A stretch of DNA of 64,000 bases from a virus (Duplodnaviria; Heunggongvirae; Uroviricota; Caudoviricetes), in the IMG/VR virus record IMGVR_UViG_3300012573_000004. One strand, given 5' to 3'. The position numbers and the translations under genes are program-made. Under the pieces are notes generated by a model. That model worked only from the letters and a program-made list of their open reading frames with translations. It ran no database searches and was not told the DNA's origin. Shown here piece after piece: positions 759 to 56,623 of the stretch; positions within the stretch are counted from its first letter, which is position 1; every line of letters starts with the position of its first letter.

Positions 759-2174
759 TCAAAGATCACTACACACAGAATCATTATTGATTCTGCTATC
801 ATGTACATCATTGACTAATTTGGCACCATTTTTTGAGTGAGACACCCCAGGACATACACCGTTGTCCTGGGGGCTTTTTCTTATATGGCGTGGAAGAACG
901 CTAAGCCCTATTCCTCTTCTAGCAATAAGATAGCTTGCTTTTTGGTGTATGGTTTTTCCATACTTTCTATCATTCCAGAATTGGGTATTTTTAGAAGTAT
1001 TATAAGGACTTACCTTTATGCATTTACCTCCACATATATCCATCTTTCTCTTTAGAAGAGTAGAAAATGTGTGATAAGGGATTTTATTAATAGTTCTATT
1101 TAGAGCTCTTGCACTACTTATAGAACTTCTTTTCAAAAAAGAAAGGCCTTTGAGGTTTTCAATATAAACTGTGCTGCAATGATTCTTTTTCAGCCAGAGA
1201 TAAATGGAATGAACAAGTGTTTCAATATCTTTGGAGTGCTTATGATGAAACTCCCTTTGTGCAATAGGGTTTCCATGTTTGTCTACTATAGTGCAAGAAA
1301 CAAAACCAGAGTTTTGGTCAATACCACATGCTCTTCCAGGTATATGTGATATTCCATGCTTCTTGTACAATCTTTCTTTTTCTACCCTAGTAGTTATATG
1401 TAGTCTCCATACCCTTTTATTGCTATCCCAGCAAAACTGGTATGCAGTTGCTAAACGCTCTTTGATACTATGATAAACATTCTTTTTACCGTGTTTAATG
1501 ACTACTTTGCCAAGCACATATTCTCTTCCTTGTAGTCTTAATGCTTTTTGCATTCCTGAACTAATCTTGATGGTTAGTTCTCCAGTGTCAGGGTTTAACT
1601 TGATGGTGTCATTTCCACATGTTTTTCCTGATTCACCCATAAACTCAAGGAATAATCTCTTGTTATTCCAATCTTCTTTTAATGAATCATCCCAGTAGTT
1701 TTGTGTGATTTTTCTTTGAAGCTTTGAACCACCAAAGCAGCATGATGGTGCTTTGGAAGATGATAGCCTTATTTTCTTGTTAATAACGGCAATAGAATCA
1801 ATGGCATTCTTTTTCTTTAATCCATGCAAAGTGGGAAGTTTCTTGTGAAGACGTGATATTTCTTTGTTCCAACTTCTGATATTTTCTTGAGAAGTTCTTA
1901 ACGCTAGTTGATACTGCTCAGAATTGGAATAAACAACATAGTCTGCTTCTCTTTTGCTAATCCCATATTTTTCCATTAACCGTGATCTACGTTCTAGCTT
2001 AGAAGGAGTATCCTTGTCTTTTCTATGACAAGATACTATGTATGAATAATCATCATTTCTCACGGTACTTAGGAAAAGTCCCACAGTGTGAAGAATATTC
2101 TTTCCCTCTTTGGTGAGATCAAGCTTTGTAGAATAGGTGAATACAAGATAGTCTTTACTTTTCATGAGATTCAC
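759..2174 (-). CDS. tnpB: TnpB-family RuvC-like nuclease (IS607-type accessory). C-terminal zinc finger and RuvC-III look degenerate.
   Basis: RuvC-I-like CGIDQNSGFVSCTIVDKHGNPI and RuvC-II-like VYIENLKGL. Only two Cys (CGGKC) in the zinc-finger region. Overlaps the upstream recombinase ORF. Confidence 0.65.
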   Translation of the reverse strand: MNLMKSKDYLVFTYSTKLDLTKEGKNILHTVGLFLSTVRNDDYSYIVSCHRKDKDTPSKLERRSRLMEKYGISKREADYVVYSNSEQYQLALRTSQENIRSWNKEISRLHKKLPTLHGLKKKNAIDSIAVINKKIRLSSSKAPSCCFGGSKLQRKITQNYWDDSLKEDWNNKRLFLEFMGESGKTCGNDTIKLNPDTGELTIKISSGMQKALRLQGREYVLGKVVIKHGKKNVYHSIKERLATAYQFCWDSNKRVWRLHITTRVEKERLYKKHGISHIPGRACGIDQNSGFVSCTIVDKHGNPIAQREFHHKHSKDIETLVHSIYLWLKKNHCSTVYIENLKGLSFLKRSSISSARALNRTINKIPYHTFSTLLKRKMDICGGKCIKVSPYNTSKNTQFWNDRKYGKTIHQKASYLIARRGIGLSVLPRHIRKSPQDNGVCPGVSHSKNGAKLVNDVHDSRINNDSVCSDL

Positions 2175-2784
2175 CCTTAGATTCTTCTTGAAGGAGATTT
2201 TTTACTCTTTCAGCTCCTCTTTTACCATATAATCTCCCACATGCTGATACCATGAACTCAGTTATTTCTGTTGCTAAGTCATCTTCAACATCATTATCAT
2301 TGGCAACAATGATGTCCCTTCCTTGTGCATTAAGAGTCTTTTTAATGAGATTAAAATTGCTTCTAGCTAGCCTTTCTCTATGTTCAACAATGATGGTGGA
2401 TATAGAAGGATCAGCAAGTATAGAAGATAGTTTCTTTCTATTTTCATTAAATCCAGAACCTACCTCTTCTACACATTTATCAATTGATAATCCATTGTTG
2501 TTAGCATATTCATAGATAGCTAGCTTCTGAAGTGGCAATGACTCTTTTTGCTTAGATGTGCTCACTCTGCAGTAGGCAACTGTGAAATCATCATTATTAT
2601 TTTCTTCATAGGAAGAAATACCAGTGAAGGATTCTGGAACCTCAACTAAAATGATTCTTTCACTAGGGCGAAAAGTGGGAAAAGGTATCTTTCCTTGGTG
2701 ATACCAATTCAAAGCAGTTTGACGTGTTACTGTCATAAGATCTGCATATTCAGAAAGTCTGATTTTCCTTGTTTTCTCTTTCAT
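2155..2784 (-). CDS. tnpA: IS607-family serine recombinase (MerR-like HTH plus resolvase catalytic domain)
   Basis: Catalytic YCRVSTSKQ serine motif. N-terminal HTH (LMTVTRQTALNWYHQGKIP). Start chosen at MKEKTRK, preceded by the SD aaagggg. Confidence 0.75.
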   Translation of the reverse strand: MKEKTRKIRLSEYADLMTVTRQTALNWYHQGKIPFPTFRPSERIILVEVPESFTGISSYEENNNDDFTVAYCRVSTSKQKESLPLQKLAIYEYANNNGLSIDKCVEEVGSGFNENRKKLSSILADPSISTIIVEHRERLARSNFNLIKKTLNAQGRDIIVANDNDVEDDLATEITEFMVSACGRLYGKRGAERVKNLLQEESKGESHEK

Positions 2785-2919
2785 TAGTATCACCCCTTTC
2801 ATACTATAGTGCATTTGTATATATGGTATTATCATTATACCATACCTTTTTCATATTTGTCAAAATAAGTATTGATACAATGTTTTATATTGAAAATACC
2901 ATATTTTAATAGCAGTTAG

Positions 2920-2992
2920 TGCCCCCGGCAGGATTTGAACCCGCGACACATGGGGTAGAAACCCACTGCTCTATCCACTGAGCTACGGAGGC
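2920..2992 (-). tRNA. tRNA-Arg (anticodon TCT)
   Basis: Reverse complement GCCTCCGTAGCTCAGTGGATAGAGCAGTGGGTTTCTACCCCATGTGTCGCGGGTTCAAATCCTGCCGGGGGCA. Anticodon loop TTTCTAC. Confidence 0.8.
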
Positions 2993-17357: not shown

Positions 17358-17619
17358 GAGGAATCAGCCCTGCAATATTCTCTAGATACACAGTGCCATA
17401 ATAAGCTATGACACCAGGAGTGATAAGAAGAATAGCCAAAGCAACAAACACTGCAATGTTAAATGCATATTGAGATGCCTTATGTTGGATATTCTTTCCA
17501 GAATGGGTGAAAGTAGTCATTGTGGTGCTACATCCTTTTCTTATCAGGAGTTGAACAAGTGAAATGTTCTTTTCTTGAAGAACAACTTTCACTGTAGTCA
17601 CAAAAACACCACAAGTCAA
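17302..17619 (-). CDS. Small membrane protein
   Basis: ORF with the hydrophobic segment IAVFVALAILLITPGVIAYY. Confidence 0.35.
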   Translation of the reverse strand: MTCGVFVTTVKVVLQEKNISLVQLLIRKGCSTTMTTFTHSGKNIQHKASQYAFNIAVFVALAILLITPGVIAYYGTVYLENIAGLIPLAGYWYVYDVIKGYFFDS

Positions 17620-17631
17620 TATTTACCCCAT

Positions 17632-17805
17632 TTAGGGTGTAGTAGTTACTGTTTCTACTTGTTCTACTTGTGTATTTTCAACAGAAGAAGATTCAACCTG
17701 ATGATGAAAATAAATGGCCATTGCAGCTCCAATAGCTAGAATCCCCAGCAAAATCACAGCACAGAGAAAGTCTTTCCCTTTTTCACTTAGTTGTTTCATA
17801 GGCAT
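17632..17805 (-). CDS. Candidate 57-aa membrane protein (MPMKQLSEKGKDFLCAVILLGILAIGAAMAIYFHH...)
   Basis: SD aaaggagaaaaaATG. TM helix. Below the 60-aa cutoff of the ORF track. Confidence 0.4.
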   Translation of the reverse strand: MPMKQLSEKGKDFLCAVILLGILAIGAAMAIYFHHQVESSSVENTQVEQVETVTTTP

Positions 17806-26641: not shown

Positions 26642-28036
26642 CTACCAACTCACTAAAGCTGAGTTGGTTTCCTGCTTCTTAGAGGATACAGTCCCCTGCA
26701 TTGCTGCAGGTTTCTGTAGGTCTACAACCCTCTCACTATGCTCATAGAAAACATAGTCCAATTGGTCCAAATAAGAGTTTTGTCCAATCAGCACAGGCGT
26801 TAATTCCCTATGTTCCATAGGTATATTATGTTCTGATAAACCAAAATCTATCATGTTTTTAGCTGCATGAATATCACGATCTTCTGTAGCACCACAGTAT
26901 TTACATACATATTCTCTTTCTTTCAAAGAGTGTTTAGTGTTTTTATCACATGAAGAACACCATTGTGTAGTAGGAGACCACTTATCCACCATAAAAGCTC
27001 TTGGATGAGCTTTCAAAAGAGATTTAACTCTACCTAGAACACTGTGATGGAGTTTTCTTCCAAAGCGCATCTTCCATGCACTCAAACTTTCATCTTGAAA
27101 GAAGACATACTCATTTTTCATCAAAAGAGAAACTATTTGTTTAGCAAGATTATCTTTCTTGTTATTAAGTTTGTCATATTCCCTGTTTAGTTTCTCCTTT
27201 GTAATGAAGTAGTTATGAGAAAGTGGAATATAAGACAAACCTTCTTGATTCTTTCTCTTTTTTGCTTGTCTATATTGTCTATCTAGTTTCCTTTGTAGTC
27301 TTTTTACCCTTTGTGGCACTTCAATAGTAGTACTTATCTTCTCACCAGTTGATAGGGTTATGTGAGTTGCAATTCCCATATCAATCCCAATAGCAGTATT
27401 AGGAATGAAATCATCTACATCTACTTGTGAGGTATAAGCTGTTATTTTAATGAAGAACCCTGATGCTTTTTTAATGAGTTTAGCATTAGCTAACTCAGCA
27501 TCTTGAGGTATTTGATGCAGTCCATAAACTTTAAAACTTCCAGGTATCTTTTGAATACTTGCTTTCTTTTCTAGAAAGTTTATTTTATAGGTAGTTTTGT
27601 ATTGCTTGAGATCAATACTTTGAACCTTGCGTGCAAATTTCAAACTTCCTACTTTATGTCCCTTTTCTTTGAGTGCTTTCAAAGAAGACAAGTTTCTAGA
27701 GATGGAAGAAACAATAGACTGTTTCAACTGAGAACCTAGATAACAAATCTTCCTATCTTCCATTTTTCCTTCCCTGTTCATCACAGGTACTGTTTTTCCA
27801 GGAATATAAGAAGTTGGTTTATCAGTGTTAAGAGCAGCATTGTATATCCATTTTGCTTCAAGAAACACCTTATCTAGCGCTTCTTTTTGCTGGAGGTTGA
27901 GTTTATCCATATCAACTTTTAGCTCATAAACTTTACATGTTTGTTGAGATCTACGCTTGCGAGTTTCTTGTCTTGTTCTCGCTATTTGTGCATTTTTCTC
28001 ATTTGCATAAACTTTCTTATTTACTATAGCTGACAT
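26642..28036 (-). CDS. tnpB: TnpB (IS605 OrfB) RuvC-like nuclease
   Basis: RuvC-I IGIDMGIATHITLSTGEK. Zinc finger CSSCDKNTKH...CKYCG. RuvC-III DRDIHAAKNMI. SD agaggtgaataataccATG. Confidence 0.8.
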   Translation of the reverse strand: MSAIVNKKVYANEKNAQIARTRQETRKRRSQQTCKVYELKVDMDKLNLQQKEALDKVFLEAKWIYNAALNTDKPTSYIPGKTVPVMNREGKMEDRKICYLGSQLKQSIVSSISRNLSSLKALKEKGHKVGSLKFARKVQSIDLKQYKTTYKINFLEKKASIQKIPGSFKVYGLHQIPQDAELANAKLIKKASGFFIKITAYTSQVDVDDFIPNTAIGIDMGIATHITLSTGEKISTTIEVPQRVKRLQRKLDRQYRQAKKRKNQEGLSYIPLSHNYFITKEKLNREYDKLNNKKDNLAKQIVSLLMKNEYVFFQDESLSAWKMRFGRKLHHSVLGRVKSLLKAHPRAFMVDKWSPTTQWCSSCDKNTKHSLKEREYVCKYCGATEDRDIHAAKNMIDFGLSEHNIPMEHRELTPVLIGQNSYLDQLDYVFYEHSERVVDLQKPAAMQGTVSSKKQETNSALVSW

Positions 28037-28114
28037 GGTATTATTCACCTCTTTTCTGATATTTTGCTATGCTCTTACTTAAAGAGTATAGCACATAAGA
28101 AAGTGATAAGTAGA

Positions 28115-28528
28115 ATGCACAAGGAATATAAATCTCTTAATAGAAACACCACAAGAATCAGGTATCATATTGAGTTGTCATTTAGATATGGATATAAAGT
28201 TGCACAAAGCATAGGAGATGACAATGTGAAAAGCATTATCAACTCAGCCGTAAGTCATTGTGAAGGTGTGAAACTTTTATCAGTGGGAATAGATAAAAAT
28301 CATGTCCATATGGTTATAGATTCACCTCCTTATTGGAGTGTTACTCAATTAGTAGATAGAATAAAACAACTTTCTACTCACAGAGCATGGATGAAGTATT
28401 TTCCTATTGTGAAACAGTTTTGTGGGAAGAAAAAAGTTTTATTTTCTGATGGATATTTTTGTGAATCTATTGGAAATGTTGAAGAAAATGTAGTAATAGA
28501 TTATGTTAAAAATCAAGGGAAGAAATAA
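28115..28528 (+). CDS. tnpA: IS200/IS605 Y1 (HuH) transposase TnpA
   Basis: HuH motif HVHMVI. Catalytic Tyr region SDGYFCESIG. Length 138 aa. Confidence 0.75.
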   Translation: MHKEYKSLNRNTTRIRYHIELSFRYGYKVAQSIGDDNVKSIINSAVSHCEGVKLLSVGIDKNHVHMVIDSPPYWSVTQLVDRIKQLSTHRAWMKYFPIVKQFCGKKKVLFSDGYFCESIGNVEENVVIDYVKNQGKK

Positions 28529-28551: not shown

Positions 28552-30114
28552 TTAAAAGACAGGTGGGCTTTCTGTGGTTGATATGGTAAATCCAAGAGTT
28601 TTATACAGGCTTCCATCAGAAACTGTATTGTCAGAAAATGTCACAATCTTTTCCAAACCATATTCTCTTGCGTAAGACATACCCTTTTTAAGAAGTTTTC
28701 CCATCCCTCCTACTACCACACAAGAGGTTACATACCTATCAAGGTAGAGGATGTTTTTATTCTTTCTCCAAGAAGACACAGCAACTAGATCACCACCTTG
28801 ATCATAGAGACCAATGTATTTACTTCCCTGTGATCTTCCTTGAATGTGGTATTTATCTAGGAAATCTCGTGCTGTAGCAAAATCCACAGAATCAGAAAAT
28901 GTATTTCTAGCATACACCTTTCTATCTTGAGATACTCCAAGTTTATGAGAAATCATAGATTCTACTATTTTTCTTCTCAACATCCAGTCATCTTCCCATA
29001 CCACAATCAACTGAATGCCTTTATCTGCACAAAGCTTCCACTTGATAATGTGCTTATCTTTGGTTTTTCCTACCTTTTCACTGTGCCAATAAAGACCATT
29101 GAACTCTATGGCCAAGTTGTGATCCGGAATATAAATATCTAACTCATGAGTTCTTAAAGCAGATCTATCAGAGGTTTTTACTCCTACTTCTTGTGGAAGT
29201 ATAGATTTAACAAAATCAGCAACTTCAGTCTCCATGGTAGATACCTTCTTGCAACAACGAGGGCATCCACTACCTCCTGTCCTGCCACTTATGATGGCTT
29301 TCCAACTGTGTCCATTCTCACATTTCCACCATACTTTTTTGGTTGATTTAGCAGCAACATCATGTGGTGTGAGAGGAAGATTCTTGCTGGTATCCCATTC
29401 TTTAGATAGTTCTGGGAAAAGAGTAGCAATGTCATTGTCTCCAGGTAATACCTTTTGCCCCACACATACTGGACATCCACTTTTATTCATTGACCTATGG
29501 TAAATAGAAGCTTTATAGCTATGATTTTTCTTTGGACATAACCACCATACTTTTTTATGTGTTCCATAACTATAAGATTCAGGTAGTAAATCATTTTTAT
29601 CATAATCCCATTCTTTTATAAGATCAGGGAATCGTGTTTTAAGATCTGTTTCTCCTACAATCACCCTGTTTCCAGAACAGTAAGGACACCCTGTTCCACC
29701 TGAAACACGAGAGGAGATTTTGGTTTCCCATTCATGCCCCCTATCACATATCCACCACACCTTCTTCCCAGAACTTTGCACTACCTCTTGAGGTTTTAAG
29801 TCATTCCTTTTATAATTCCACTGTGATGCAATTTTAGGATGAATGTATGCAAAGTCATTAAATCCTTGCAAAACTTTCTTCCCTGCACAATAAGGACAGT
29901 TTCTCCCACTTGCCCTACTTTTAATGACAGCAGCCCAACTATGACCTTTATCACATTTCCACCATGCCTTCTTATGCGATCCAGGAAGTACTTGATTAGG
30001 AGAAATGGTATTTTTATCATCATCCCATTGTTGAGCAAGATAAGGATGTAAATAGACAAGGTTATTTTTGCTTGTTACACTCCTGCTTGGTTTAGAAATG
30101 ATATCATTTTCCAT
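28552..30114 (-). CDS. Five tandem treble-clef zinc-ribbon repeats, a Vsr/PD-(D/E)xK-like endonuclease domain, and a GNAT-like C-terminus
   Basis: Five repeats of W(D/N)x(x)KN...P....GS.KK(A/V)WW.C..GH.W.A.I..R..G.GCP.C.G. Then DIYIPDHNLAIEFNGLYWHSE (Vsr/DUF559-like 'EfDG..WH'). Confidence 0.6.
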   Translation of the reverse strand: MENDIISKPSRSVTSKNNLVYLHPYLAQQWDDDKNTISPNQVLPGSHKKAWWKCDKGHSWAAVIKSRASGRNCPYCAGKKVLQGFNDFAYIHPKIASQWNYKRNDLKPQEVVQSSGKKVWWICDRGHEWETKISSRVSGGTGCPYCSGNRVIVGETDLKTRFPDLIKEWDYDKNDLLPESYSYGTHKKVWWLCPKKNHSYKASIYHRSMNKSGCPVCVGQKVLPGDNDIATLFPELSKEWDTSKNLPLTPHDVAAKSTKKVWWKCENGHSWKAIISGRTGGSGCPRCCKKVSTMETEVADFVKSILPQEVGVKTSDRSALRTHELDIYIPDHNLAIEFNGLYWHSEKVGKTKDKHIIKWKLCADKGIQLIVVWEDDWMLRRKIVESMISHKLGVSQDRKVYARNTFSDSVDFATARDFLDKYHIQGRSQGSKYIGLYDQGGDLVAVSSWRKNKNILYLDRYVTSCVVVGGMGKLLKKGMSYAREYGLEKIVTFSDNTVSDGSLYKTLGFTISTTESPPVF

Positions 30115-42195: not shown

Positions 42196-42564
42196 CTAGA
42201 AATAAGTAACAAAAGATACATCATTTAAGTTGATGTCATCATCTCCAATGACAGTATCACCTTTGACTTCAGCATAATCCACGGTGAAGTATTCAGGATA
42301 GTCTTGAATCAAAGAGGAGATATCATGGTAATAATCCCCATCCCAGAAAAACCTATCATCTTCATCATAGATATTCTGAGAAGAAATATCACCATAGTCA
42401 TCTTGCAAAGACTCATCTTTGATGAGATTAAAAAGATCAACAAAACCCTCAGGTGCTAGATTGTTGATGTGGCAATCAACTTCAGCAATATAGTCTTGTG
42501 CAATCTCATCATCTTCTACAGTCTTAAATACTCCAGTAAAAGAAAAGACCTTATCCTTGTTCAT
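42196..42564 (-). CDS. Acidic hypothetical protein
   Basis: Start at MNKDKVF with a perfect SD aaggagaaataacATG. Confidence 0.5.
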   Translation of the reverse strand: MNKDKVFSFTGVFKTVEDDEIAQDYIAEVDCHINNLAPEGFVDLFNLIKDESLQDDYGDISSQNIYDEDDRFFWDGDYYHDISSLIQDYPEYFTVDYAEVKGDTVIGDDDINLNDVSFVTYF

Positions 42565-42662
42565 GTTATTTCTCCTTGTTGTGATGGTGTTTTTATCTTC
42601 ACCTTCTACCCTAGACAAGAAAGAACAACATTTCTACCCAACACCCTCTTTCAGGGGTGTTT

Positions 42663-43076
42663 TTAGATTGTGTCTTTGCTGGATTTAATAGTGATATCCT
42701 GAGCATTGTTGCTGTGTTGTGCTGTGGTGAGATCTACTACAACATAGTCATCTTCTCCAGTAAGCTTGCTTTCAATATCCTTGCTTTGAACCTTATGGAC
42801 TACAGCATGTACAGTTCCCATACTTCTATCAGTTTCACGATACTCCATACCTAAGTGAAGAGTACTAAGATAGACCTTAAATACAGTGCGCAAAATAGTA
42901 TTTGCAGCTCCATATGTGCCTATGTTTTTCAACATGGAAGAAAAGAAGTCATCTCCAAAGATCTCTTCTTTTAAAACACTTAAATAGTACTCTGAAACAA
43001 CTGGAGTAGTAACAGTTACTGCTGTAAAAGTATCTTTGTTAATATTACTCTCCATTAAAATATCACATTGTGACAT
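42663..43076 (-). CDS. Hypothetical protein
   Basis: ORF. SD aaaaggaga upstream. Confidence 0.45.
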   Translation of the reverse strand: MSQCDILMESNINKDTFTAVTVTTPVVSEYYLSVLKEEIFGDDFFSSMLKNIGTYGAANTILRTVFKVYLSTLHLGMEYRETDRSMGTVHAVVHKVQSKDIESKLTGEDDYVVVDLTTAQHSNNAQDITIKSSKDTI

Positions 43077-43231
43077 AAGTATCATTCTCCTTTTATTGTA
43101 TTTTTTCTATTGATTTCTATATTACCAAAAATGCAAAAGTGATATGCAAAACACCTCAACATTGGATTTTTAAGACTAGTTGGTATACTTTTTGCATATA
43201 TCAACAATCAAAGAAGAAAAGGTGAAAAAGT

Positions 43232-44382: not shown

Positions 44383-44814
44383 TTATTCAACATAAGAGTC
44401 AATAAAAGCAAGAGAATAGGTAACGTTCATGGAATGGCGCTGAAGTTGTGTAGGAGAAATATCACCCATGTTGTTTTCCTTTAGGTGCAAAGACAAACGC
44501 TGATAGTCATCTTCTTCCACTATCAAGTGCTGAGCAGCTTCACTTAAGCTTTGAAACATTCCAATATAGAAACCAAACTGGAATGCTACCAAGTGAGACA
44601 TATTATCTACGCTATATCCTAAAGCATCAGCTATAGTGTAGAACTCATGTTCTCCTACTCCATGAGCTTGAGCATTATCCCCTGTCATCATTCCATGGTA
44701 AATAGGGGTAGAAAACCCATAAAAACGCTCCTTGTCTAAAGCATAAGTATTCATAGTCTCTACCATGTCTTCAAAATTGTTGCGAAGAAAATCAGAAGAA
44801 AAGATATTAAGCAT
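44383..44814 (-). CDS. Hypothetical protein
   Basis: ORF only. Confidence 0.45.
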   Translation of the reverse strand: MLNIFSSDFLRNNFEDMVETMNTYALDKERFYGFSTPIYHGMMTGDNAQAHGVGEHEFYTIADALGYSVDNMSHLVAFQFGFYIGMFQSLSEAAQHLIVEEDDYQRLSLHLKENNMGDISPTQLQRHSMNVTYSLAFIDSYVE

Positions 44815-48151: not shown

Positions 48152-49135
48152 CTACCACTGTCCATAGATTTCAGAATGTGCTCTGATATTCATGTTTCCA
48201 GAAATAATACCTCCATGGCAAACTGTATAATCTAGAACATGAACGTTTTCACATACCATGCTATCTCCTTGGATTGTACAGTGTCCATAAATATGTGAAG
48301 TGCCACACACCTGAGCGTTATCTTTTACTACAGCATTGCCATAGATATGAGATTGTCCATAACACAGTGCTTCCCCTGATACTTCTGCATGTCCATAGAC
48401 AACACTGTTGTTATAGATTTCAGCGCTTCCCTTAATCACACAATGACCATAAGCTTTAGCTTCATCTGATAGACAAGCATGACCAGAAACATGACAATAT
48501 CCTTTAAGCTGAACATTGTCTACAACAATAGAAGAACCATCAACTCGCGCATAGTCTGAAACTACAACATCTCCACAAACATGAGCATTGTTTCCTACTT
48601 GAGCATCATCTTTTACCTGTGCCTTTCCATAGATACAAGCTTTTCCACAAAGATAAGCATAACCATAGATATCAGCACTTCCACTAACTTTCACATTGTC
48701 TCTAACAATAGCCCTTTGATGCACTTGAGCATTATCAAAAACTTGACTGTCATCTCTAATGATTGCACTGCTATAGACATGAGCATTGCCATATACTTGT
48801 GCATTTCCTAGAACAAAAGATTTGCCTGAAACATGAGCTTTATCATACACCTGTGCATTGTTTTTGATAGTTGCATAATCTTTTATTACTGCATTTCCAT
48901 ATACTTGTGCAGTGTCTTTTGCACAGCTAGATCCAGAAAGAACAGCATTGCCATATACCTTAGCATTATCAAAAACCCATGCGTTATCAGAAAGGTTATG
49001 TGGTGATTCTACAAAACCTCCTTTATCTCCTTGAGATACACCCTGATCAGGAATATCTTTGAGTGCTTGAATCCTGTGTAGGGTGTGTCCTGAGACAACA
49101 ATGGTGTCATGGGTAAGTCTAAAATAGGTATCCAT
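48152..49135 (-). CDS. Beta-solenoid repeat protein built from ~10-residue units ([DN]-x-A-x-V-[YFC]-G-[NK]-A-x-V), function unknown
   Basis: At least 25 consecutive degenerate repeats (NAKVYGNAVL, TAQVYGNAVI, NAQVYDKAHV, NAQVYGNAHV...). The same repeats are visible at DNA level. Confidence 0.6.
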   Translation of the reverse strand: MDTYFRLTHDTIVVSGHTLHRIQALKDIPDQGVSQGDKGGFVESPHNLSDNAWVFDNAKVYGNAVLSGSSCAKDTAQVYGNAVIKDYATIKNNAQVYDKAHVSGKSFVLGNAQVYGNAHVYSSAIIRDDSQVFDNAQVHQRAIVRDNVKVSGSADIYGYAYLCGKACIYGKAQVKDDAQVGNNAHVCGDVVVSDYARVDGSSIVVDNVQLKGYCHVSGHACLSDEAKAYGHCVIKGSAEIYNNSVVYGHAEVSGEALCYGQSHIYGNAVVKDNAQVCGTSHIYGHCTIQGDSMVCENVHVLDYTVCHGGIISGNMNIRAHSEIYGQW

Positions 49136-49246
49136 AATTGATAAGCTCTCCTTTTAATGATATATAGTGCTTTTTAACTACCAATGATAGACTTATGTGC
49201 ATCAAAAGTCAATAACATAGACAACATCATTAACATTTTAAGAATA

Positions 49247-49290
49247 GAAAAAATCCCTGTGGAAAAACTCCACAGGGAAAAGTTTTTTTT
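49247..49290. terminator. Bidirectional terminator (tccctgtgg/ccacaggga, A-run plus T8)
   Basis: Read in the sequence. Confidence 0.8.
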
Positions 49291-49423
49291 ATTCTGTGCT
49301 AATGGCTGCTAGTTGCTCGGCTGTAGCAATAAGAACAATGAGACCCCATGCTAAAGCCAATGGCATCATCACAGCACTAACAGCAGCAATAACGGTATTT
49401 TTTACCATATGATATCACCTTTC

Positions 49424-49828
49424 TTAAACAAGATTAGGTTGTGCAGTTTTGTGGAAATCCAGCTCAATAGAGCGCACATCATAAGTAGATGCAGCCTTAG
49501 ACAAGTTGATGATCATGAAGTTATCATCATCACCTGCAAGATTATATACCTCATTCATAGAATCTAGAGCAAAAATATCAGCATCAGTCCAGTTTCGTGC
49601 AGCAGCATTCCTATGATAGTTGTCTTTACCCAAATCCAGCTTGGAGTAATGAATCATGAAGACTTCTTGCAGAATCAGATCCGTTACAGCATGTACTCCT
49701 CGCTTGTTGAGCATCATAGTGATGTCATTGTCATTGAGAACATTTTCAATCAAAGATACAGTGGAATCAAAGGTGTTCTTGGTAGATGCCACCACTCCTG
49801 TGATAACCCCAGCACCCTGGTATTGACA
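49424..49828 (-). pseudogene. 3' portion of a small-protein gene split by the IS605-like insertion. Paralog of 52245..52670. Continues from the 5' fragment at 51902..51925.
   Basis: Translation ...CQYQGAGVITGVVASTKNTFDSTVSLIENVLNDNDI... aligns with the intact paralog from residue 9 onward. No in-frame ATG start: the track ORF 49424..49795 begins at a GTG, and the frame upstream of 49828 hits stop codons. Confidence 0.6.
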
Positions 49829-49879
49829 TTCTCCCCATAGCTAAAGCTAGGAGATTCAGTGTGTTATAGACTATAACTC

Positions 49880-51346
49880 CTAAATGGAGGTGTTATCATC
49901 TATAACCTTGACTGGATTGATAGCATCATTGAAATCAGCCTTGATTGAAGGTTTGAAAAACTCTTCTCTCATACCTTGCGGTATTGTAGGTCTTATAATC
50001 TCTCCACTACCATTCATATGATGTGCATCATATGCGGGCAAGTCAGTGCCCTGTAAAATATACTCATATAGAGCTAGGATGTTGCAAGCAGCATTGGTAT
50101 CAGCATTGCTATCATATCCACAATGCTTACAAAGAAAAATAGATTGACTCTCTCTATTCTTCTTATTTGTATATCCACACTTGCTGCACCTTTGAGAAGT
50201 GTAATAAGCTGGAACATACACTACTTGCTTTCCATTGTTTAAAGCTTTATATTCCAACATGGTACTTATTGTGGAAGGTGAAGCTGAAAGAAAAGATCTA
50301 TTCATTCCTCTCTTTTTCTTTCCACCTTTTTTAGTCATGTTCTTAACCTGGAGATCTTCTAGAACAATCACACCATGTTCTCTAATGATGAAGGTTGTTT
50401 TTTCTTGAAGCCAAGAGTTTTTATATGCAGAAATCTTCTTGGAATAATGAGCACATTTTCTCTTGTTTTCTTGGTAAGTATTTCCCTTCATCACCTTGTA
50501 CATGTTTTCTTTCCCACCAGCTTTTTTAGCTCTAGATCTAGCCTTACCCATTTGCTTTTGATAATACTTCTTCTTAGACTCATACTTATCTAAGAGCTTT
50601 TTATCAAAAGACATAGTTTTTCCATCACTAGTAGCTAGTGGAATGACCCCTCCACGATCAATGCCTACTGCTTTATTAGTTGCAGTAGAGTTCTTCTTAT
50701 TGCAAGCTGGGGTATTAGTAAAAACAACTGTCTTTGAAGACCAATTGACTATGACACTGGTATAGGGGTTAATGTCATCATAGGTTTTTACCCTAATGGT
50801 AATCTTCCAAGAAGATTTGTCCTTGGAGTTTTTCTTTTTATCTTTGGGATTTCTACCACCAATAACAATGACTCCTGTGTTTTTACCAGTTTTATGGTAT
50901 CTAGCATTAGTACCATTGTTATACCAGCATACAAAATATTGATCTTCTTTCTTTTTAGATTTAAATCTAGGCATAGAACCAGGATTAGATACACCTTTTT
51001 CTCTTAATGTTTTTCTTCTTTTTACAGCAGAAAACCATTCAATGTTTTCTTTCTTTTCTGGAGCTTGCAAAATCATTGTTGGAATAGCAGAAAGGAAAGA
51101 ATACTCTATCCTTGCATTTTTGTCAGTGATATTTGCAACATCACTTCCAATGGGGACAAGATTTTTATTCTTGTCATATTTCTTTCTTTTAGATCTATGC
51201 TGATTAAATCTTGTTCTGTATCCATCACATAACCAGTTCATAATCTTATCAGGAGATGTAGTATAAGAGTCAGTACCTTGAATACAACCACGGTAGATAG
51301 GAGCACCTGAGTGTTTAACACTAATGATTTTAGCCTTTTGACTCAT
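49880..51346 (-). CDS. tnpB: TnpB (IS605 OrfB) RuvC-like nuclease
   Basis: RuvC-I AVGIDRGGVIPLATSDGK. RuvC-II VIVLEDLQVKNM. Zinc finger CSKCGYTNKK...CKHCG. RuvC-III SNADTNAACNILA. Confidence 0.8.
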   Translation of the reverse strand: MSQKAKIISVKHSGAPIYRGCIQGTDSYTTSPDKIMNWLCDGYRTRFNQHRSKRKKYDKNKNLVPIGSDVANITDKNARIEYSFLSAIPTMILQAPEKKENIEWFSAVKRRKTLREKGVSNPGSMPRFKSKKKEDQYFVCWYNNGTNARYHKTGKNTGVIVIGGRNPKDKKKNSKDKSSWKITIRVKTYDDINPYTSVIVNWSSKTVVFTNTPACNKKNSTATNKAVGIDRGGVIPLATSDGKTMSFDKKLLDKYESKKKYYQKQMGKARSRAKKAGGKENMYKVMKGNTYQENKRKCAHYSKKISAYKNSWLQEKTTFIIREHGVIVLEDLQVKNMTKKGGKKKRGMNRSFLSASPSTISTMLEYKALNNGKQVVYVPAYYTSQRCSKCGYTNKKNRESQSIFLCKHCGYDSNADTNAACNILALYEYILQGTDLPAYDAHHMNGSGEIIRPTIPQGMREEFFKPSIKADFNDAINPVKVIDDNTSI

Positions 51347-51449
51347 GGTTTTCTCCTTTCTTGGATAAGAATGTTCTTTGTTATATGATGTGTTAGTAGT
51401 ATAACATAAAAAAGAACACTATGCAAATCATTGCTTCAAGGAGTAGCTT

Positions 51450-51845
51450 ATGGATGGAAATATTAAAACAGAAAATCACATTACTTATGACTGCCATTAC
51501 CATGTTGCATGGTGTACCAAGTATAAGCTTGAACTCTTAAAAGATGGGGTTGATGAGCGTTTAAAGGAAATCATTTATGATGTAGCACAAGAGTTTGATG
51601 CTGTTGTTGAAGAGTTAAAAATCACAAAAGATCATGTTCATTTAATTTTGTCATGCTACCCTCATATTACTCACAAAATAATCAGAACAATGAAGGGTAG
51701 ATCTTCTAGTCTTCTACGAGAGGAATACAGTTTCATCAATACTAGAACCCCTTCCCTGTGGACAAGACGTTATTTCATTGCTACTACTGGTGAATCACAG
51801 CTAAGAAATATTAAAAGGTACATAGAAAATCAAAAGAGGAGATGA
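51450..51845 (+). CDS. tnpA: IS200/IS605 Y1 (HuH) transposase TnpA
   Basis: HuH motif HVHLIL. Catalytic Tyr region RRYFIATTGES. Length 131 aa. Confidence 0.8.
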   Translation: MDGNIKTENHITYDCHYHVAWCTKYKLELLKDGVDERLKEIIYDVAQEFDAVVEELKITKDHVHLILSCYPHITHKIIRTMKGRSSSLLREEYSFINTRTPSLWTRRYFIATTGESQLRNIKRYIENQKRR

Positions 51846-51901
51846 CACCACCATTCCTCCCCATGCCTAAAGACAGAAGAATCCTGGTGGTGTGCATAGG
51901 T

Positions 51902-51925
51902 TTTCCACAATAATGAACTTGGACA
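51902..51925 (-). pseudogene. 5' fragment (MSKFIIVE) of the IS-disrupted small-protein gene, with its conserved ~230-bp upstream leader (51926..52140)
   Basis: ATG TCC AAG TTC ATT ATT GTG GAA is identical in sense to the start of the paralog (MSKFVIVE). The reading frame then runs into IS sequence and stops. Confidence 0.55.
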
Positions 51926-52244
51926 TATATCTCATCTCTTTCTGATAGATGGTGTGTTTTCCTCTTGAACAACTTCTATATTAGAAGAAAGAAAGAAAGT
52001 TCCCTGTTTAACTGATACCCCATTGTAGGGGTGGTAAAGAAGAGGGTGATATTGTGTCCCCTTATATCACAGTAGATACGCAACACAAAAATGGATAGAG
52101 CGGTTTGTATATTTTAACCTATTCCCACACAGTACCTCCTCACTCTTTTAGCACGCTAATATAATAAGTGGTGGGGAGTTCATAAAAACAAATAAAGACC
52201 CTTGCAAATCTAGCATCTACAAGGGTTTTTATCTGTTTTCTGTC

Positions 52245-52670
52245 TTATGCATCAACCTTTGCAGGATTGTAGAAATCTAGCTCAATAGAGCGTGCATCAT
52301 GGGTAGATGCAGCCTTGGATAAATCAATAACCATGAAGTCATCATCACCTCCAAGGTCATATATCTCTTGCATGGAATCTAGGGTTAGGATCTCAGCGCT
52401 AGACCAGTTTCGTGCAACAGCATTGGTGTGATAGTCATTTTCACCCATGATATCCAACTTGGAATAATCAATCATGAAAACATCATTCAAAATGAGCCTG
52501 GTAATAACATAAGTGCCACTTTGCTGAAGCAGTGCAGAAATGTCATTGTCATTGAGCACATTTTCAATACGGGAAACAGTAGATTCAAAGGGGTGCTTGG
52601 TAGATACCTCCACTGCCTTGACCATTCCAATTCCATGGTACTGCTGTTCCACAATAACAAACTTAGACAT
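52245..52670 (-). CDS. Small hypothetical protein (142 aa); intact paralog of the IS-disrupted gene
   Basis: MSKFVIVEQQYHGIGMVKAVEVSTKHPFESTVSRIENVLNDNDI... SD ctaggagagaaaacATG. Confidence 0.6.
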   Translation of the reverse strand: MSKFVIVEQQYHGIGMVKAVEVSTKHPFESTVSRIENVLNDNDISALLQQSGTYVITRLILNDVFMIDYSKLDIMGENDYHTNAVARNWSSAEILTLDSMQEIYDLGGDDDFMVIDLSKAASTHDARSIELDFYNPAKVDA

Positions 52671-52886
52671 GTTTTCTCTCCTAGTAGATGGTGTGCTTTC
52701 TTGCTTGAACACCTTTTACTATAGTGGGAAAGGTGTCATCTGTCTACTTGCTACCCCATTTGAGGGGTGAAAAAAGAGGAGGGTGATATTGTGCCACCCC
52801 CCCCTTTTTTTGTCTTGTGGTGAGCACACAACACAAGAATAGACAGAGTGGTCTGTCTATTTTAATATTGATTCATATTTAGTGAA

Positions 52887-52920
52887 ATAAAAACAGCATG
52901 AGATGTTCTCATGCTGTTTT
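52887..52920 (-). terminator. Terminator for tRNA-Asp (aaacagcatgaga/tctcatgctgttt hairpin with a T-run on the minus strand)
   Basis: Read in the sequence. Confidence 0.75.
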
Positions 52921-52923
52921 CTG

Positions 52924-52997
52924 CGCTTCTGACGGGACTCGAACCCGCGACCTCCGCCGTGACAGGGCGGCGCGCTAACCGGCTGCGCCACAGAAGC
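52924..52997 (-). tRNA. tRNA-Asp (anticodon GTC). Notably GC-rich.
   Basis: Reverse complement GCTTCTGTGGCGCAGCCGGTTAGCGCGCCGCCCTGTCACGGCGGAGGTCGCGGGTTCGAGTCCCGTCAGAAGCG. Anticodon loop CTGTCAC. Confidence 0.85.
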
Positions 52998-53131
52998 AAT
53001 AAATATACTATAACACACCTAGAAAAACACTGTCAAGTCCTAGTTTAAAAAACTTTCTCCACACAAGAAAATGCATGCTGCTATGATGAAAAAGAACATT
53101 TATTTCTCTATTTTTCGCAAAGGAAAAGCAC

Positions 53132-54812: not shown

Positions 54813-54826
54813 CACCACAGTACCAA

Positions 54827-56623
54827 CTACATTAACAAAGAATGCACACAATGCATATCTTTTCTAGCATAGTTGGTTTTAGCAGCCTTTTCAGGGTCCT
54901 GGAGAGTATCGTATCTATCTCCATCCACTAAAACTGTCACATCATCATAGTGTGTAGTGGTGCTGTAAGTATTTCCCACCTCCTCCACAAACTTTTGTCG
55001 TGCTTTCTTGAACTGTCTTCCTTTCTTTTTATTATCACATTTTCCTGTAGGTTTTCCTTTCTTCTTTCCAGTTGATTTATAGGATAGAGTATCCTTTGTT
55101 ATAGGTGTTCTTAGATTCTTTTTATTCTTATCTCTTTTATAAGATTTAGATTTTCTTCTAGTAGAAGACATTTTACAAGCAGTAGGTATTGCTCTTTTTC
55201 CTATGTTGTATGAAGCATTGATATCTCTATCTACATCTTCTTTGCACTGTGTGCAATGAGCATTCTTCCATGTATTAAATGTAAGATTACTTCCACAGAA
55301 ATAGCATTGCGTGCTTGTATAAGCAGGATTGACAGTAATAACTCTTCCACCATTGAGTTCTACATATTCAGTAGTCCTTTTAACTAGTTCCCCTCTATTC
55401 CATCTACCACTGCTCATAGTATTTTCAATCCATGAAAGATCTTCAAAAGCTACAACAGCGTTATCCCATATATGTGATATATAAGCTATTTCACCTGCTG
55501 CAATGATTGCAAGTTGCCTTTTCTTGTTGCTGTTTTTCTTTCTTTGAAGAGATATTTCATTTTTGATATCCATATACTTTTTGTCAAAAATAGATGTCTT
55601 GTCTAACTTTTTATGTAGTGAAGATATTTGTCTAGATGTTGCTTTGATACTATTAGATAAAGAATGCACTCTTCTTGACAAAGATGTACTATGCACCACT
55701 CTTCCATTTTTGTCAATGACTGAAACTACTGCATAGTCACTAATATTGACATCTACGCCAATAAAATAGTTGCTGGTTATATCTTTGTAGATGTAAGGGT
55801 ATTCCATAGAAAAATGGAATAATACTTTGTTGTCTTTCACAGTTATATCAGGCAAGCATACTTTTGATGCTTCAAAAAACCTTGATGTGTCAAAATGAAA
55901 GTATAGCAAATACCACTGTCCATCAATAACCATTCTTAGACAAATATGACCATCTTCAAAAGGATTGTTGGTGATATATGCATAGCCTTTATCAACAATG
56001 CTTAAGCTTATCTTGTCCCTTATATCACAAGGGGTTCCTATATGGGCTGTTCTCTTCCATCCTGAACTGATATATTTATCACTTGATCCATTGAAAGCTT
56101 TTATTCTTTCTAACCATGATGTAGCTTCATCTACTACTCTTCTGTGGTACAACCATTGTCTTCTGGAGTTGCCACTGGTTTTTGATACATTCTTTGTGTG
56201 TTCTTTGTAGGATATACCACCATTTGAATAGCTAATATGAGATTCTTTATGTGATGGAATAACACCTTGTGGAAGATTTAACCCTAGAGAAATACCTATT
56301 TTACTTGCATTGTTGAAACCATTGTACCTTTCCATATCATCAAGCAAGTGGATATCATTTCTCAGTGTCCATTCAGCTGCTGCTGTTATTGATTGTATTT
56401 CTTCTTTCAACCTAGCAAGAATGAGCTTTGTATCATCAACATCTTTTCCTGATAAATCATGAATGGAATAAGGTGTTGCAGTAAAGCTTTTATAACACTT
56501 ATTGCTGTTTTTGCTCAATATAATCACCTGCTTTAGATAACAAGCACAAGCTTCAATCGCTATAGCTTCTGCTGCGTGTATGACTATACCACAAGACAAA
56601 AGAAGAAAAAAGGGGAAGCACAC
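54827..56623 (-). CDS. TnpB-like / Cas12-like RuvC nuclease (598 aa with an N-terminal extension)
   Basis: RuvC-I IGVDVNISDYAVVSVIDKNG. RuvC-II AVVAFEDLSWIE. Zinc finger CYFCGSNLTF...CTQC. RuvC-III DVDRDINASYNIG. The ATG at 56623 has the SD caaggagtaaaaagtacATG, and this start lies inside the direct repeat. Confidence 0.7.
   Translation of the reverse strand: MCFPFFLLLSCGIVIHAAEAIAIEACACYLKQVIILSKNSNKCYKSFTATPYSIHDLSGKDVDDTKLILARLKEEIQSITAAAEWTLRNDIHLLDDMERYNGFNNASKIGISLGLNLPQGVIPSHKESHISYSNGGISYKEHTKNVSKTSGNSRRQWLYHRRVVDEATSWLERIKAFNGSSDKYISSGWKRTAHIGTPCDIRDKISLSIVDKGYAYITNNPFEDGHICLRMVIDGQWYLLYFHFDTSRFFEASKVCLPDITVKDNKVLFHFSMEYPYIYKDITSNYFIGVDVNISDYAVVSVIDKNGRVVHSTSLSRRVHSLSNSIKATSRQISSLHKKLDKTSIFDKKYMDIKNEISLQRKKNSNKKRQLAIIAAGEIAYISHIWDNAVVAFEDLSWIENTMSSGRWNRGELVKRTTEYVELNGGRVITVNPAYTSTQCYFCGSNLTFNTWKNAHCTQCKEDVDRDINASYNIGKRAIPTACKMSSTRRKSKSYKRDKNKKNLRTPITKDTLSYKSTGKKKGKPTGKCDNKKKGRQFKKARQKFVEEVGNTYSTTTHYDDVTVLVDGDRYDTLQDPEKAAKTNYARKDMHCVHSLLM

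Follow-up and report, generated by a model that had tools for sequence, protein, structure and literature searches.

The locus analysed here belongs to a 64,000-nucleotide stretch of Caudoviricetes DNA (IMG/VR record IMGVR_UViG_3300012573_000004), hereafter the window, in which a small gene is present twice in tandem and one of the copies is split by an insertion sequence (IS) of the IS200/IS605 family. Along the minus strand, a tRNA-Asp gene is followed by an intact copy of the small gene and then, beyond a terminator-like hairpin, by a second copy interrupted close to its start codon, each copy being preceded by its own upstream region (Table 1). That an IS200/IS605-family element splits the gene, and that an intact paralog with a similar upstream region adjoins the split copy, had been proposed in a preliminary description of the sequence and was confirmed here: tnpA and tnpB both lie inside the element, and the rebuilt open reading frame (ORF) is in frame. 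The paralog had, however, been placed 3 kb away; the two copies are in fact adjacent and in tandem, the 3 kb being the element itself.

The inserted element and its ends

On the minus strand, the element reads left end (LE), tnpA (reversed), tnpB and right end (RE), which corresponds to the IS605 layout. The two genes are divergent, and the element shares the orientation of the gene that it interrupts. Instead of terminal inverted repeats, subterminal imperfect hairpins are found at both ends, each followed by GGGGAG(G/A)AATG and conserved in 6-8 copies.

Eight independent copies (the window and contigs L013, L015, L018/20, L019, L021, L023 and L024) were used to define the right end. The sequence ...GGGGAGAATGTCAA closes the element in 8/8 copies, and because this shared terminus (...GAATGTCAA) gives way at the very next base to unrelated flanks, the last base of the element could be fixed at 49823 and not at 49829, as first reported. 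With this boundary, a TGT triplet previously read as a C codon of the split gene belongs to the element. The right hairpin is imperfect and 21 nt long, with the cleavage tetranucleotide TCAA 10 nt from its foot in all eight copies. Looser matches to the right-end motif elsewhere were about as frequent as expected by chance and were discarded; the viral contig collection contained no copy of this end.

The left end was placed by aligning six left ends (the window copy and five others), all of which share the hairpin followed by the GGGGAGGAATG motif. In the five other copies, TCAC or TCAT occurs 18-20 nt 5' of the foot of the left hairpin, at the point where similarity between copies stops. The left flank in the window reads ...GTGGAAAAC/CTA/TGCAC, and the element starts at 51899 or 51896, which replaces the earlier estimate of 51901. 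Spacing and a shared AC point to 51899; the pairing rule between guide and cleavage sequences of IS608 would have GATT point to CCTA and hence to a left end at 51896, both positions being retained as candidates. Neither option yields a target-site duplication, an absence noted in the preliminary description and borne out by comparison with uninterrupted orthologs. Precise excision would leave a junction reading ...GTGGAAAAC(CTA) followed by TACCAGGG.

The tnpA product is a Y1 HUH transposase in which the HUH motif (H62-V-H64) and the catalytic tyrosine (R-Y124-IENQ) were recognized. Among proteins of solved structure, the ISHp608 TnpA (2a6m) is nearest to it (E 7e-33); in the alignment the HUH motifs coincide, as do the catalytic tyrosines, with RYIENQ matching KQYIENQ. 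The TnpB protein retains all RuvC residues, D230 (GIDRG), E330 (LEDL) and D416 (NADTNAA), together with an intact CxxC...CxxC zinc ribbon (C387/C390 and C406/C409), and matches TnpB and Cas12f chains in the Protein Data Bank. With 101 homologs, the best being 95% identical, it belongs to an uncharacterised clade of TnpBs of ~490 aa found on large phages; no relative was detected in the genome contig collection, hence no clue to the host. Relatives with 73-75% identity but without tnpA occur in L021 (3001..4470), L022 (1842..3311) and L023 (2530..3999). All three retain the right end and the RNA scaffold of the studied element, the left-end motif being present as well in L023, and look like non-autonomous, IS1341-like derivatives.

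Overall, the element is an intact and ordinary member of the IS200/IS605 family (IS605 group), whose TnpA and right end resemble those of IS608 (ISHp608) from Helicobacter pylori. The GAAT/hairpin/10 nt/TCAA geometry of its right end equals the one published for IS608, in which GAAT precedes the hairpin and TCAA follows its foot at a distance of 10 nt (PMC3201880). The left cleavage site is 17-20 nt 5' of the left hairpin, compared with 19 nt in IS608, and both elements lack target duplications and terminal inverted repeats. In contrast to the divergent genes described here, tnpA and tnpB are co-directional and overlapping in IS608, whose target is TTAC and not the TCAC/TCAT of this family. 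The TnpB of the window is also longer (488 aa), is no more than a distant relative of the TnpBs characterised so far and lacks the N-terminal domain HTH_OrfB_IS605 (Pfam), and the host replicon is a large phage. Taken by itself, the insertion is thus a textbook case from a known family, with nothing unexpected.

The interrupted gene and its uninterrupted relatives

The insertion falls after codon 9 or 10 of a 141/142-codon gene and cuts its product down to about 19 aa. Both gene fragments previously recognized are present, with the start codon at 51926 and not at 51925. When the element is removed in silico, the ORF is in frame under both left-end options, encoding 141 or 142 aa. The 3' fragment contains neither a frameshift nor an internal stop, and the collinearity with the intact paralog on which the preliminary description relied held upon alignment (60.6% identity over 132 aa; tblastn E 4e-50, match at 49439..49831).

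The rebuilt protein is nearly identical to P0009, encoded on the 337.5-kb contig L001, which is syntenic with the window at 86-92% identity. There, a single uninterrupted copy of the gene lies between the tRNA-Asp gene and a 39-aa gene, and nine further contigs likewise carry the gene single and uninterrupted; the tandem pair occurs in the window only. The uninterrupted gene was found in the same synteny in L001/L002 and L004-L012, and the orthologs in L001, L004, L009 and L011 run straight across the insertion site. Empty sites, which the preliminary description had suggested seeking in related strains, are thereby documented in L001 and L004-L011. None of these relatives is isogenic with the window, and the junction is therefore known to within 3 nt. 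Between the 3' fragment and the L001 ortholog, dN is 0.020 and dS 0.222 (dN/dS about 0.09). Since the fragment is free of stops and frameshifts and its divergence is mostly synonymous, the insertion is recent on the scale of the divergence among these phages.

The small gene encodes an ORFan protein confined to this lineage. Only nine homologs were retrieved from 5.8 billion proteins, a profile search of 1.84 billion representatives returned only 3 proteins, and neither a Pfam or PHROG domain nor a relative in the viral contig collection was found. The AlphaFold2 model, built from a 9-sequence alignment, had a pLDDT of 38 and was unusable. A distant paralog (28% identity over 96 aa, E 5e-8) is encoded in the window at 42666..43085, within a cluster of ~140-aa ORFs devoid of recognizable domains, some of which are preceded by the same cassette motif as the small gene (see below); 42196..42618 and 44383..44814 are perhaps further distant paralogs.

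Considered together, these data argue for the recent insertion of an IS605-layout element into one of two tandem ORFan copies, each with its own cassette, in a large phage, a reading to which we assign a probability of about 0.85. Related phages carry one small ORFan gene downstream of tRNA-Asp, predicted to be driven by a repeated cassette made of a terminator/stem-loop and a sigma-70-like promoter, and the phage of the window alone has two allelic versions in tandem, each with such a cassette. The element has entered the downstream copy at codon 9/10, the expected route being the single-strand "peel and paste" activity of TnpA, as suggested by its family; the intact upstream paralog presumably supplies the function, unless the gene is dispensable.

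Several observations weigh against this reading. The left boundary of the window copy is placed only to within 3 nt (51899 or 51896), and the site itself is off-consensus, with AAAC or CCTA where the five other copies have TCAC/TCAT. The left end carries GATT where relatives have GAAG, and three pairs of its hairpin, CCCCTGGCTTTAGCCATGGGG in the family, are T.G in the window copy; given these changes, excision may be impaired. The tandem arrangement rests on one assembled sequence. Finally, the 83-pair structure of the RNA described in the next section was derived from the very alignment in which its pairs were counted.

Table 1. Features of the split-gene locus (positions in the window)
Feature	Position	Strand	Details
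Insertion sequence	49823..51899	-	2,077 bp (2,074 bp if left end = 51896); 35% G+C
Left end (LE)	51852..51899	-	17-20 nt spacer; GATT 51883..51880; hairpin CTTCTGTCTTTAGGCATGGGG 51879..51859; motif GGGGAGGAATG 51862..51852
Left-end option	51899		Target AAAC; spacer to hairpin 20 nt; rebuilt protein 141 aa
Left-end option	51896		Target CCTA; spacer to hairpin 17 nt; rebuilt protein 142 aa, the length of P0009
tnpA	51450..51845	+	Y1 HUH transposase, 131 aa; Pfam Y1_Tnp, E 7.5e-33
tnpB	49880..51346	-	488 aa; Pfam OrfB_IS605 and Cas12f1-like_TNB
Predicted omega-RNA scaffold	49823..50074	-	Overlaps last ~190 nt of tnpB; extends to right end
Right end (RE)	49823..49857	-	GAAT 49857..49854; imperfect hairpin CTCCTAGCTTTAGCTATGGGG 49853..49833; 10 nt ending in TCAA 49826..49823
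Right flank, predicted guide	49807..49822	-	TACCAGGGTGCTGGGG; begins directly after TCAA
Split gene, 5' fragment	51897..51926	-	ATG TCC AAG TTC ATT ATT GTG GAA AAC (CTA), MSKFIIVEN(L)
Split gene, 3' fragment	49424..49822	-	132 codons and stop; starts at TAC (49822)
Predicted promoter cassette, split copy	51925..52034	-	Same parts as intact copy; -35 TAAACA 52010..52005; -10 TAATAT 51983..51978
Terminator-like hairpin	52198..52226	-	Directly after intact paralog; homologous to hairpin after same allele type in L003 and L011
Intact tandem paralog	52245..52670	-	141 aa
Predicted promoter cassette, intact copy	52669..52769	-	Stem-loop ACCCCTCAAATGGGGT; -35 TAGACA 52746..52741; 17-nt spacer; -10 TATAGT 52723..52718
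Distal upstream region, intact copy	52770..52920	-	tRNA terminator 52890..52920; hairpin AATAGACAGACCACTCTGTCTATT 52861..52838
tRNA-Asp(GTC)	52923..52997	-	Conserved upstream neighbour of the locus in L001, L003 and L011

Conserved RNA of the element and its predicted guide

While the copies of this element are otherwise only ~75% identical, their last ~250 nt are nearly invariant. RNAalifold analysis of an alignment of 7 copies (A3) predicted a structure of 83 pairs, 8 of them with compensatory changes, at the 3' end of tnpB, where the preliminary description had suggested that a TnpB omega-RNA scaffold be sought. On this consensus, 99.1% of the cells were paired, as against 35-43% when partners were slid by 1-3 columns, and the 8 compensatory pairs compare with 0-4 in the slid controls. 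Folded as a single sequence, the scaffold reached -73.6 kcal/mol (z = -4.3); no matching Rfam family was found in the window scan. This conserved structured RNA fits what ISDra2 and similar TnpB systems would lead one to expect of an omega-RNA. TnpB shares with its ISDra2 counterpart intact RuvC D-E-D residues and an intact zinc ribbon; in both systems, the RNA overlaps with the tnpB 3' end and stops at the right end, which makes the right flank the would-be guide. Unlike ISDra2, the window copy lies beside an off-consensus tetranucleotide, and the two TnpBs resemble each other only weakly (E 3e-13), in the RuvC half alone. We infer that the RNA is expressed and that TnpB is active as a nuclease.

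The predicted guide had been thought to place guide, target and intact homing site together at this locus, with the uninterrupted paralog as the target. This view could not be retained, since the homologous stretch of the paralog, TACCATGGAATTGGAA, differs from the guide at 6/16 positions (4 within the first 12) and has ...GCAG at the expected position of the transposon-adjacent motif (TAM). The paralog was accordingly rejected as a homing site, and no other match to the guide within 3 mismatches was found in the 64-kb window. Orthologous empty sites in other phages differ at 3-4/16 positions, and the guide therefore fits the isogenic empty allele only. By analogy with other TnpBs, it could direct the nuclease only against such an allele, for instance in a sister phage genome after excision, which is normal for this family and in no way specific to this locus.

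A broader role could be envisaged in which, in this lineage of huge phages, IS605/IS607 TnpB elements act as RNA-guided homing elements, or gene drives, between co-replicating or co-infecting phages, the tandem pair being the scar of a TnpB break repaired on a heterologous phage template. Suggestive in this respect are the four such elements of the 64-kb window, of which at least two (the one studied here and a 598-aa TnpB gene) are absent from L001, and the other elements that relatives carry at different nearby sites. We regard this scenario as unlikely. Under the preferred reading of a recent insertion into one of two tandem copies, the value of the locus lies in the natural material that it offers, namely one occupied site and several sequenced empty sites in close relatives, while an uncharacterised ~490-aa TnpB clade on large phages has its right end and omega-RNA scaffold defined by eight independent copies. 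Together, they would allow TnpB homing to be tested in a multicopy, recombination-proficient phage replicon.

Upstream cassettes, tandem copies and phage context

The upstream regions of the two gene copies are clearly related (alignment score 63.5, compared with a shuffle mean of -9.7). The ~80% identity initially claimed for them holds at ungapped positions (78%), falling to 65% over all columns. In the intact copy, the proximal part combines a stem-loop with a predicted sigma-70-type promoter (TAGACA-17-TATAGT), scored 10/12 by the promoter scan and located 47-75 nt before the ATG, and continues past the -10 box with a conserved AAAGGTGTTCAAGCAAGAAAGCACACCATCTA, a ribosome-binding site (RBS) and the start codon. 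The -35 box, 17-nt spacer and -10 box are kept in 6/7 versions of the locus. In the split copy, a (TTTC)n expansion has lengthened the promoter spacer to 21 nt, the promoter scan made no call, and the distal palindrome is degenerate; because of the 4 additional nucleotides in the spacer, this copy is probably silent.

The same arrangement was also found elsewhere. When L019, an unrelated contig bearing the IS, was compared with the window by BLAST, a 40-nt piece of the upstream region matched three times, each match preceding one of three unrelated genes in L019 and belonging to an ACCCC...GGGGTA stem-loop followed by TTGACC, 17 nt, TAATAT, AGAAGTTGTTCAAGAGGAAAACACACCA, an RBS and ATG. An nhmmer cassette model built from eight seeds retrieved cassettes that invariably end at a start codon (13 in the 14-kb L019, 3 in L001 and 4 in the window) and gave E 1.6e-23 for the cassette of the intact copy. 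Leaving the seeds aside, full-length cassettes number ten in L019 and two each in L001 and the window, those of the window being at 42563..42659 and 17565..17642 on the minus strand. Further copies or fragments were noted upstream of 5043 (rIIA), 44814 and 16254, and several genes have an A-rich ...AAAACAC(AC)CAT motif 19-32 nt ahead of their start codons.

These data bear on the proposal that the upstream region is a transcribed regulatory leader specific to the gene family, such as a riboswitch, an attenuator or another cis-acting RNA. In its favour, the 215 nt upstream of the intact copy fold far better than shuffled sequences (z = -6.3), and at two hairpin positions pairing is kept across alleles with different sequences (CCCC/GGGG and CTCC/GGAG; CACCTTT/AAAGGTG and AACTTC/GAAGTT). 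Yet the predicted promoter lies inside this region, close to the ATG, and most of the supposed leader would therefore be outside the mRNA. Moreover, the proximal ~105 nt recur before unrelated genes, and the strong hairpins, which form a row in the distal part, resemble terminators with A/T tracts, the distal hairpin A7-G8TGG...CCACCCTCC-T6 of the intact copy being shaped like a bidirectional terminator. RNAalifold analysis of a MAFFT alignment of 7 upstream regions gave only a weak consensus of 19 pairs (covariation term -0.39), and Rfam, even at a permissive threshold, returned only the tRNA and chance-level matches at the locus, with no riboswitch or attenuator family. We consider a family-specific leader quite unlikely. 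The recurring unit is best described, from its sequence features, as a repeated cassette comprising a stem-loop, a sigma-70-like promoter and a conserved 5' untranslated region, and is probably an early promoter.

The closest described counterpart of this cassette is the promoter-early stem-loop (PeSL), a composite terminator/early-promoter motif found before ORFans in the hyperplastic regions of T4-type phages (PMC2839356, PMC4122927). Both are short repeated intergenic cassettes with a G/C-tract stem-loop, a sigma-70-like promoter, an RBS and a start codon, and both stand mostly before small ORFans in variable regions, where closely related genomes differ in the genes that they have gained, lost or replaced. 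By contrast, the present cassette has no sequence relationship to published PeSLs and adds a conserved transcribed segment of ~30 nt (GTTGTTCAAGAGGAAAACACACCA). Likewise, the join between the tandem copies is not inside a cassette, although the second copy does bring its own. The promoter and terminator roles proposed here are predictions from the sequence. If the leader is read as a cassette, the PeSL concept of composite terminator-promoter units on either side of shuffled ORFans would be extended to large phages of an unrelated lineage.

With regard to the origin of the tandem pair, the intact copy resembles the L003/L011 allele type and the split copy the L001 type, the two being as different as alleles found singly at this locus in other phages. 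The join between them lies in unique sequence, ~70 nt of which separate the terminator-like hairpin of the intact copy from the distal part of the upstream region of the split copy. The protein P0002 (L003, 10001..10429) is a mosaic, identical to the intact-type allele from residue 1 to about 81 and matching the split-type and P0004 alleles beyond, which points to recombination inside the gene. The preliminary description held that the gene and its leader were duplicated before the insertion; two copies with their own upstream regions are indeed present, but duplication is only one way to account for them. Because the copies match allele types that occur singly, and in view of the mosaic P0002, the acquisition of a second allele from a related phage through recombination is as plausible as an old duplication in situ.

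The pair might also result from misassembly, two strain alleles of a single locus, one of them with the IS, having been joined in series. Consistent with this, 10/10 other contigs have a single copy, both copies correspond to allele types found singly elsewhere, and six contigs break inside the neighbouring tRNA-Asp gene, which marks the region as hard to assemble. However, the two parts do not meet at a shared repeat, the intact copy has behind it a terminator of its own, with homologs in L003 and L011, and unique sequence precedes the second upstream region; we therefore hold an artefact to be distinctly unlikely. The six contigs in question (L004-L008 and L010), from different sequencing runs, all start inside the anticodon arm of the tRNA-Asp gene, ~300 nt upstream of the small gene, and this recurrent assembly break suggests structural variation at the strain level.

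That the element is IStron-like or otherwise harmless, being removed from the mRNA so that the split gene still works, is extremely unlikely: tnpB has the orientation of the interrupted gene, as in IStrons, and the 3' fragment shows no decay, but no group I or group II intron model reached its gathering score in the window, the only weak match in 49700..53000 (searched to E 10) had 18 bits and E 0.95, the space for a ribozyme is filled by tnpA on the opposite strand, and the promoter of the split copy has the expanded spacer described above.

The preferred reading, a recent insertion into one of two tandem copies, agrees with the general character of the window, which encodes rIIA, a helicase, an HNH homing endonuclease and six scattered tRNAs and comes from a large lytic phage. 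A DNA search with positions 49200-53000 against the GenBank phage collection returned tRNA-Asp matches only, and apart from tRNAs the window as a whole has no nucleotide relatives in this set. Besides the element studied here, the window contains three further TnpB-type elements, and elements of the IS605 and IS607 types occur in related contigs, at other sites near the locus; that TnpB is common in phages has already been pointed out (PMC12607003). One of them, at 54819..56543 (ORF 54827..56623, minus strand) in the window, consists of a gene for a 598-aa protein with a zinc-ribbon domain of the TnpB type, unaccompanied by a transposase gene. The corresponding ~1.7 kb are absent from the syntenic L001, making it a second polymorphic insertion, 2 kb from the studied locus. 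A second IS605-layout element, at 26642..28528, encodes a 468-aa TnpB and a divergent 154-aa Y1 TnpA; it is distantly related to the studied one and directly adjoins the HNH homing-endonuclease gene (28552..30114). Also in the window, an IS607-like pair at 759..2835 comprises a serine resolvase and a 468-471-aa partner without a Pfam match, 84 nt from a tRNA-Arg gene (2919..2992).

Relatives of this IS607-like pair were observed close to the small gene in other contigs. In L009 (3576..5652), one takes the place expected for the 5' part of the tRNA-Asp gene, at which ARAGORN predicts no tRNA. In L007 (1002..3084) and L010 (1008..3089), they lie downstream of the small gene, that of L007 being between the 39-aa gene and a 327-aa gene. 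The latter is a conserved neighbour, encoded in the window at 48152..49135 (minus strand), whose product is a hexapeptide/beta-solenoid repeat protein with matches to Pfam Hexapep, to YdcK-type solenoids and to bactofilins.

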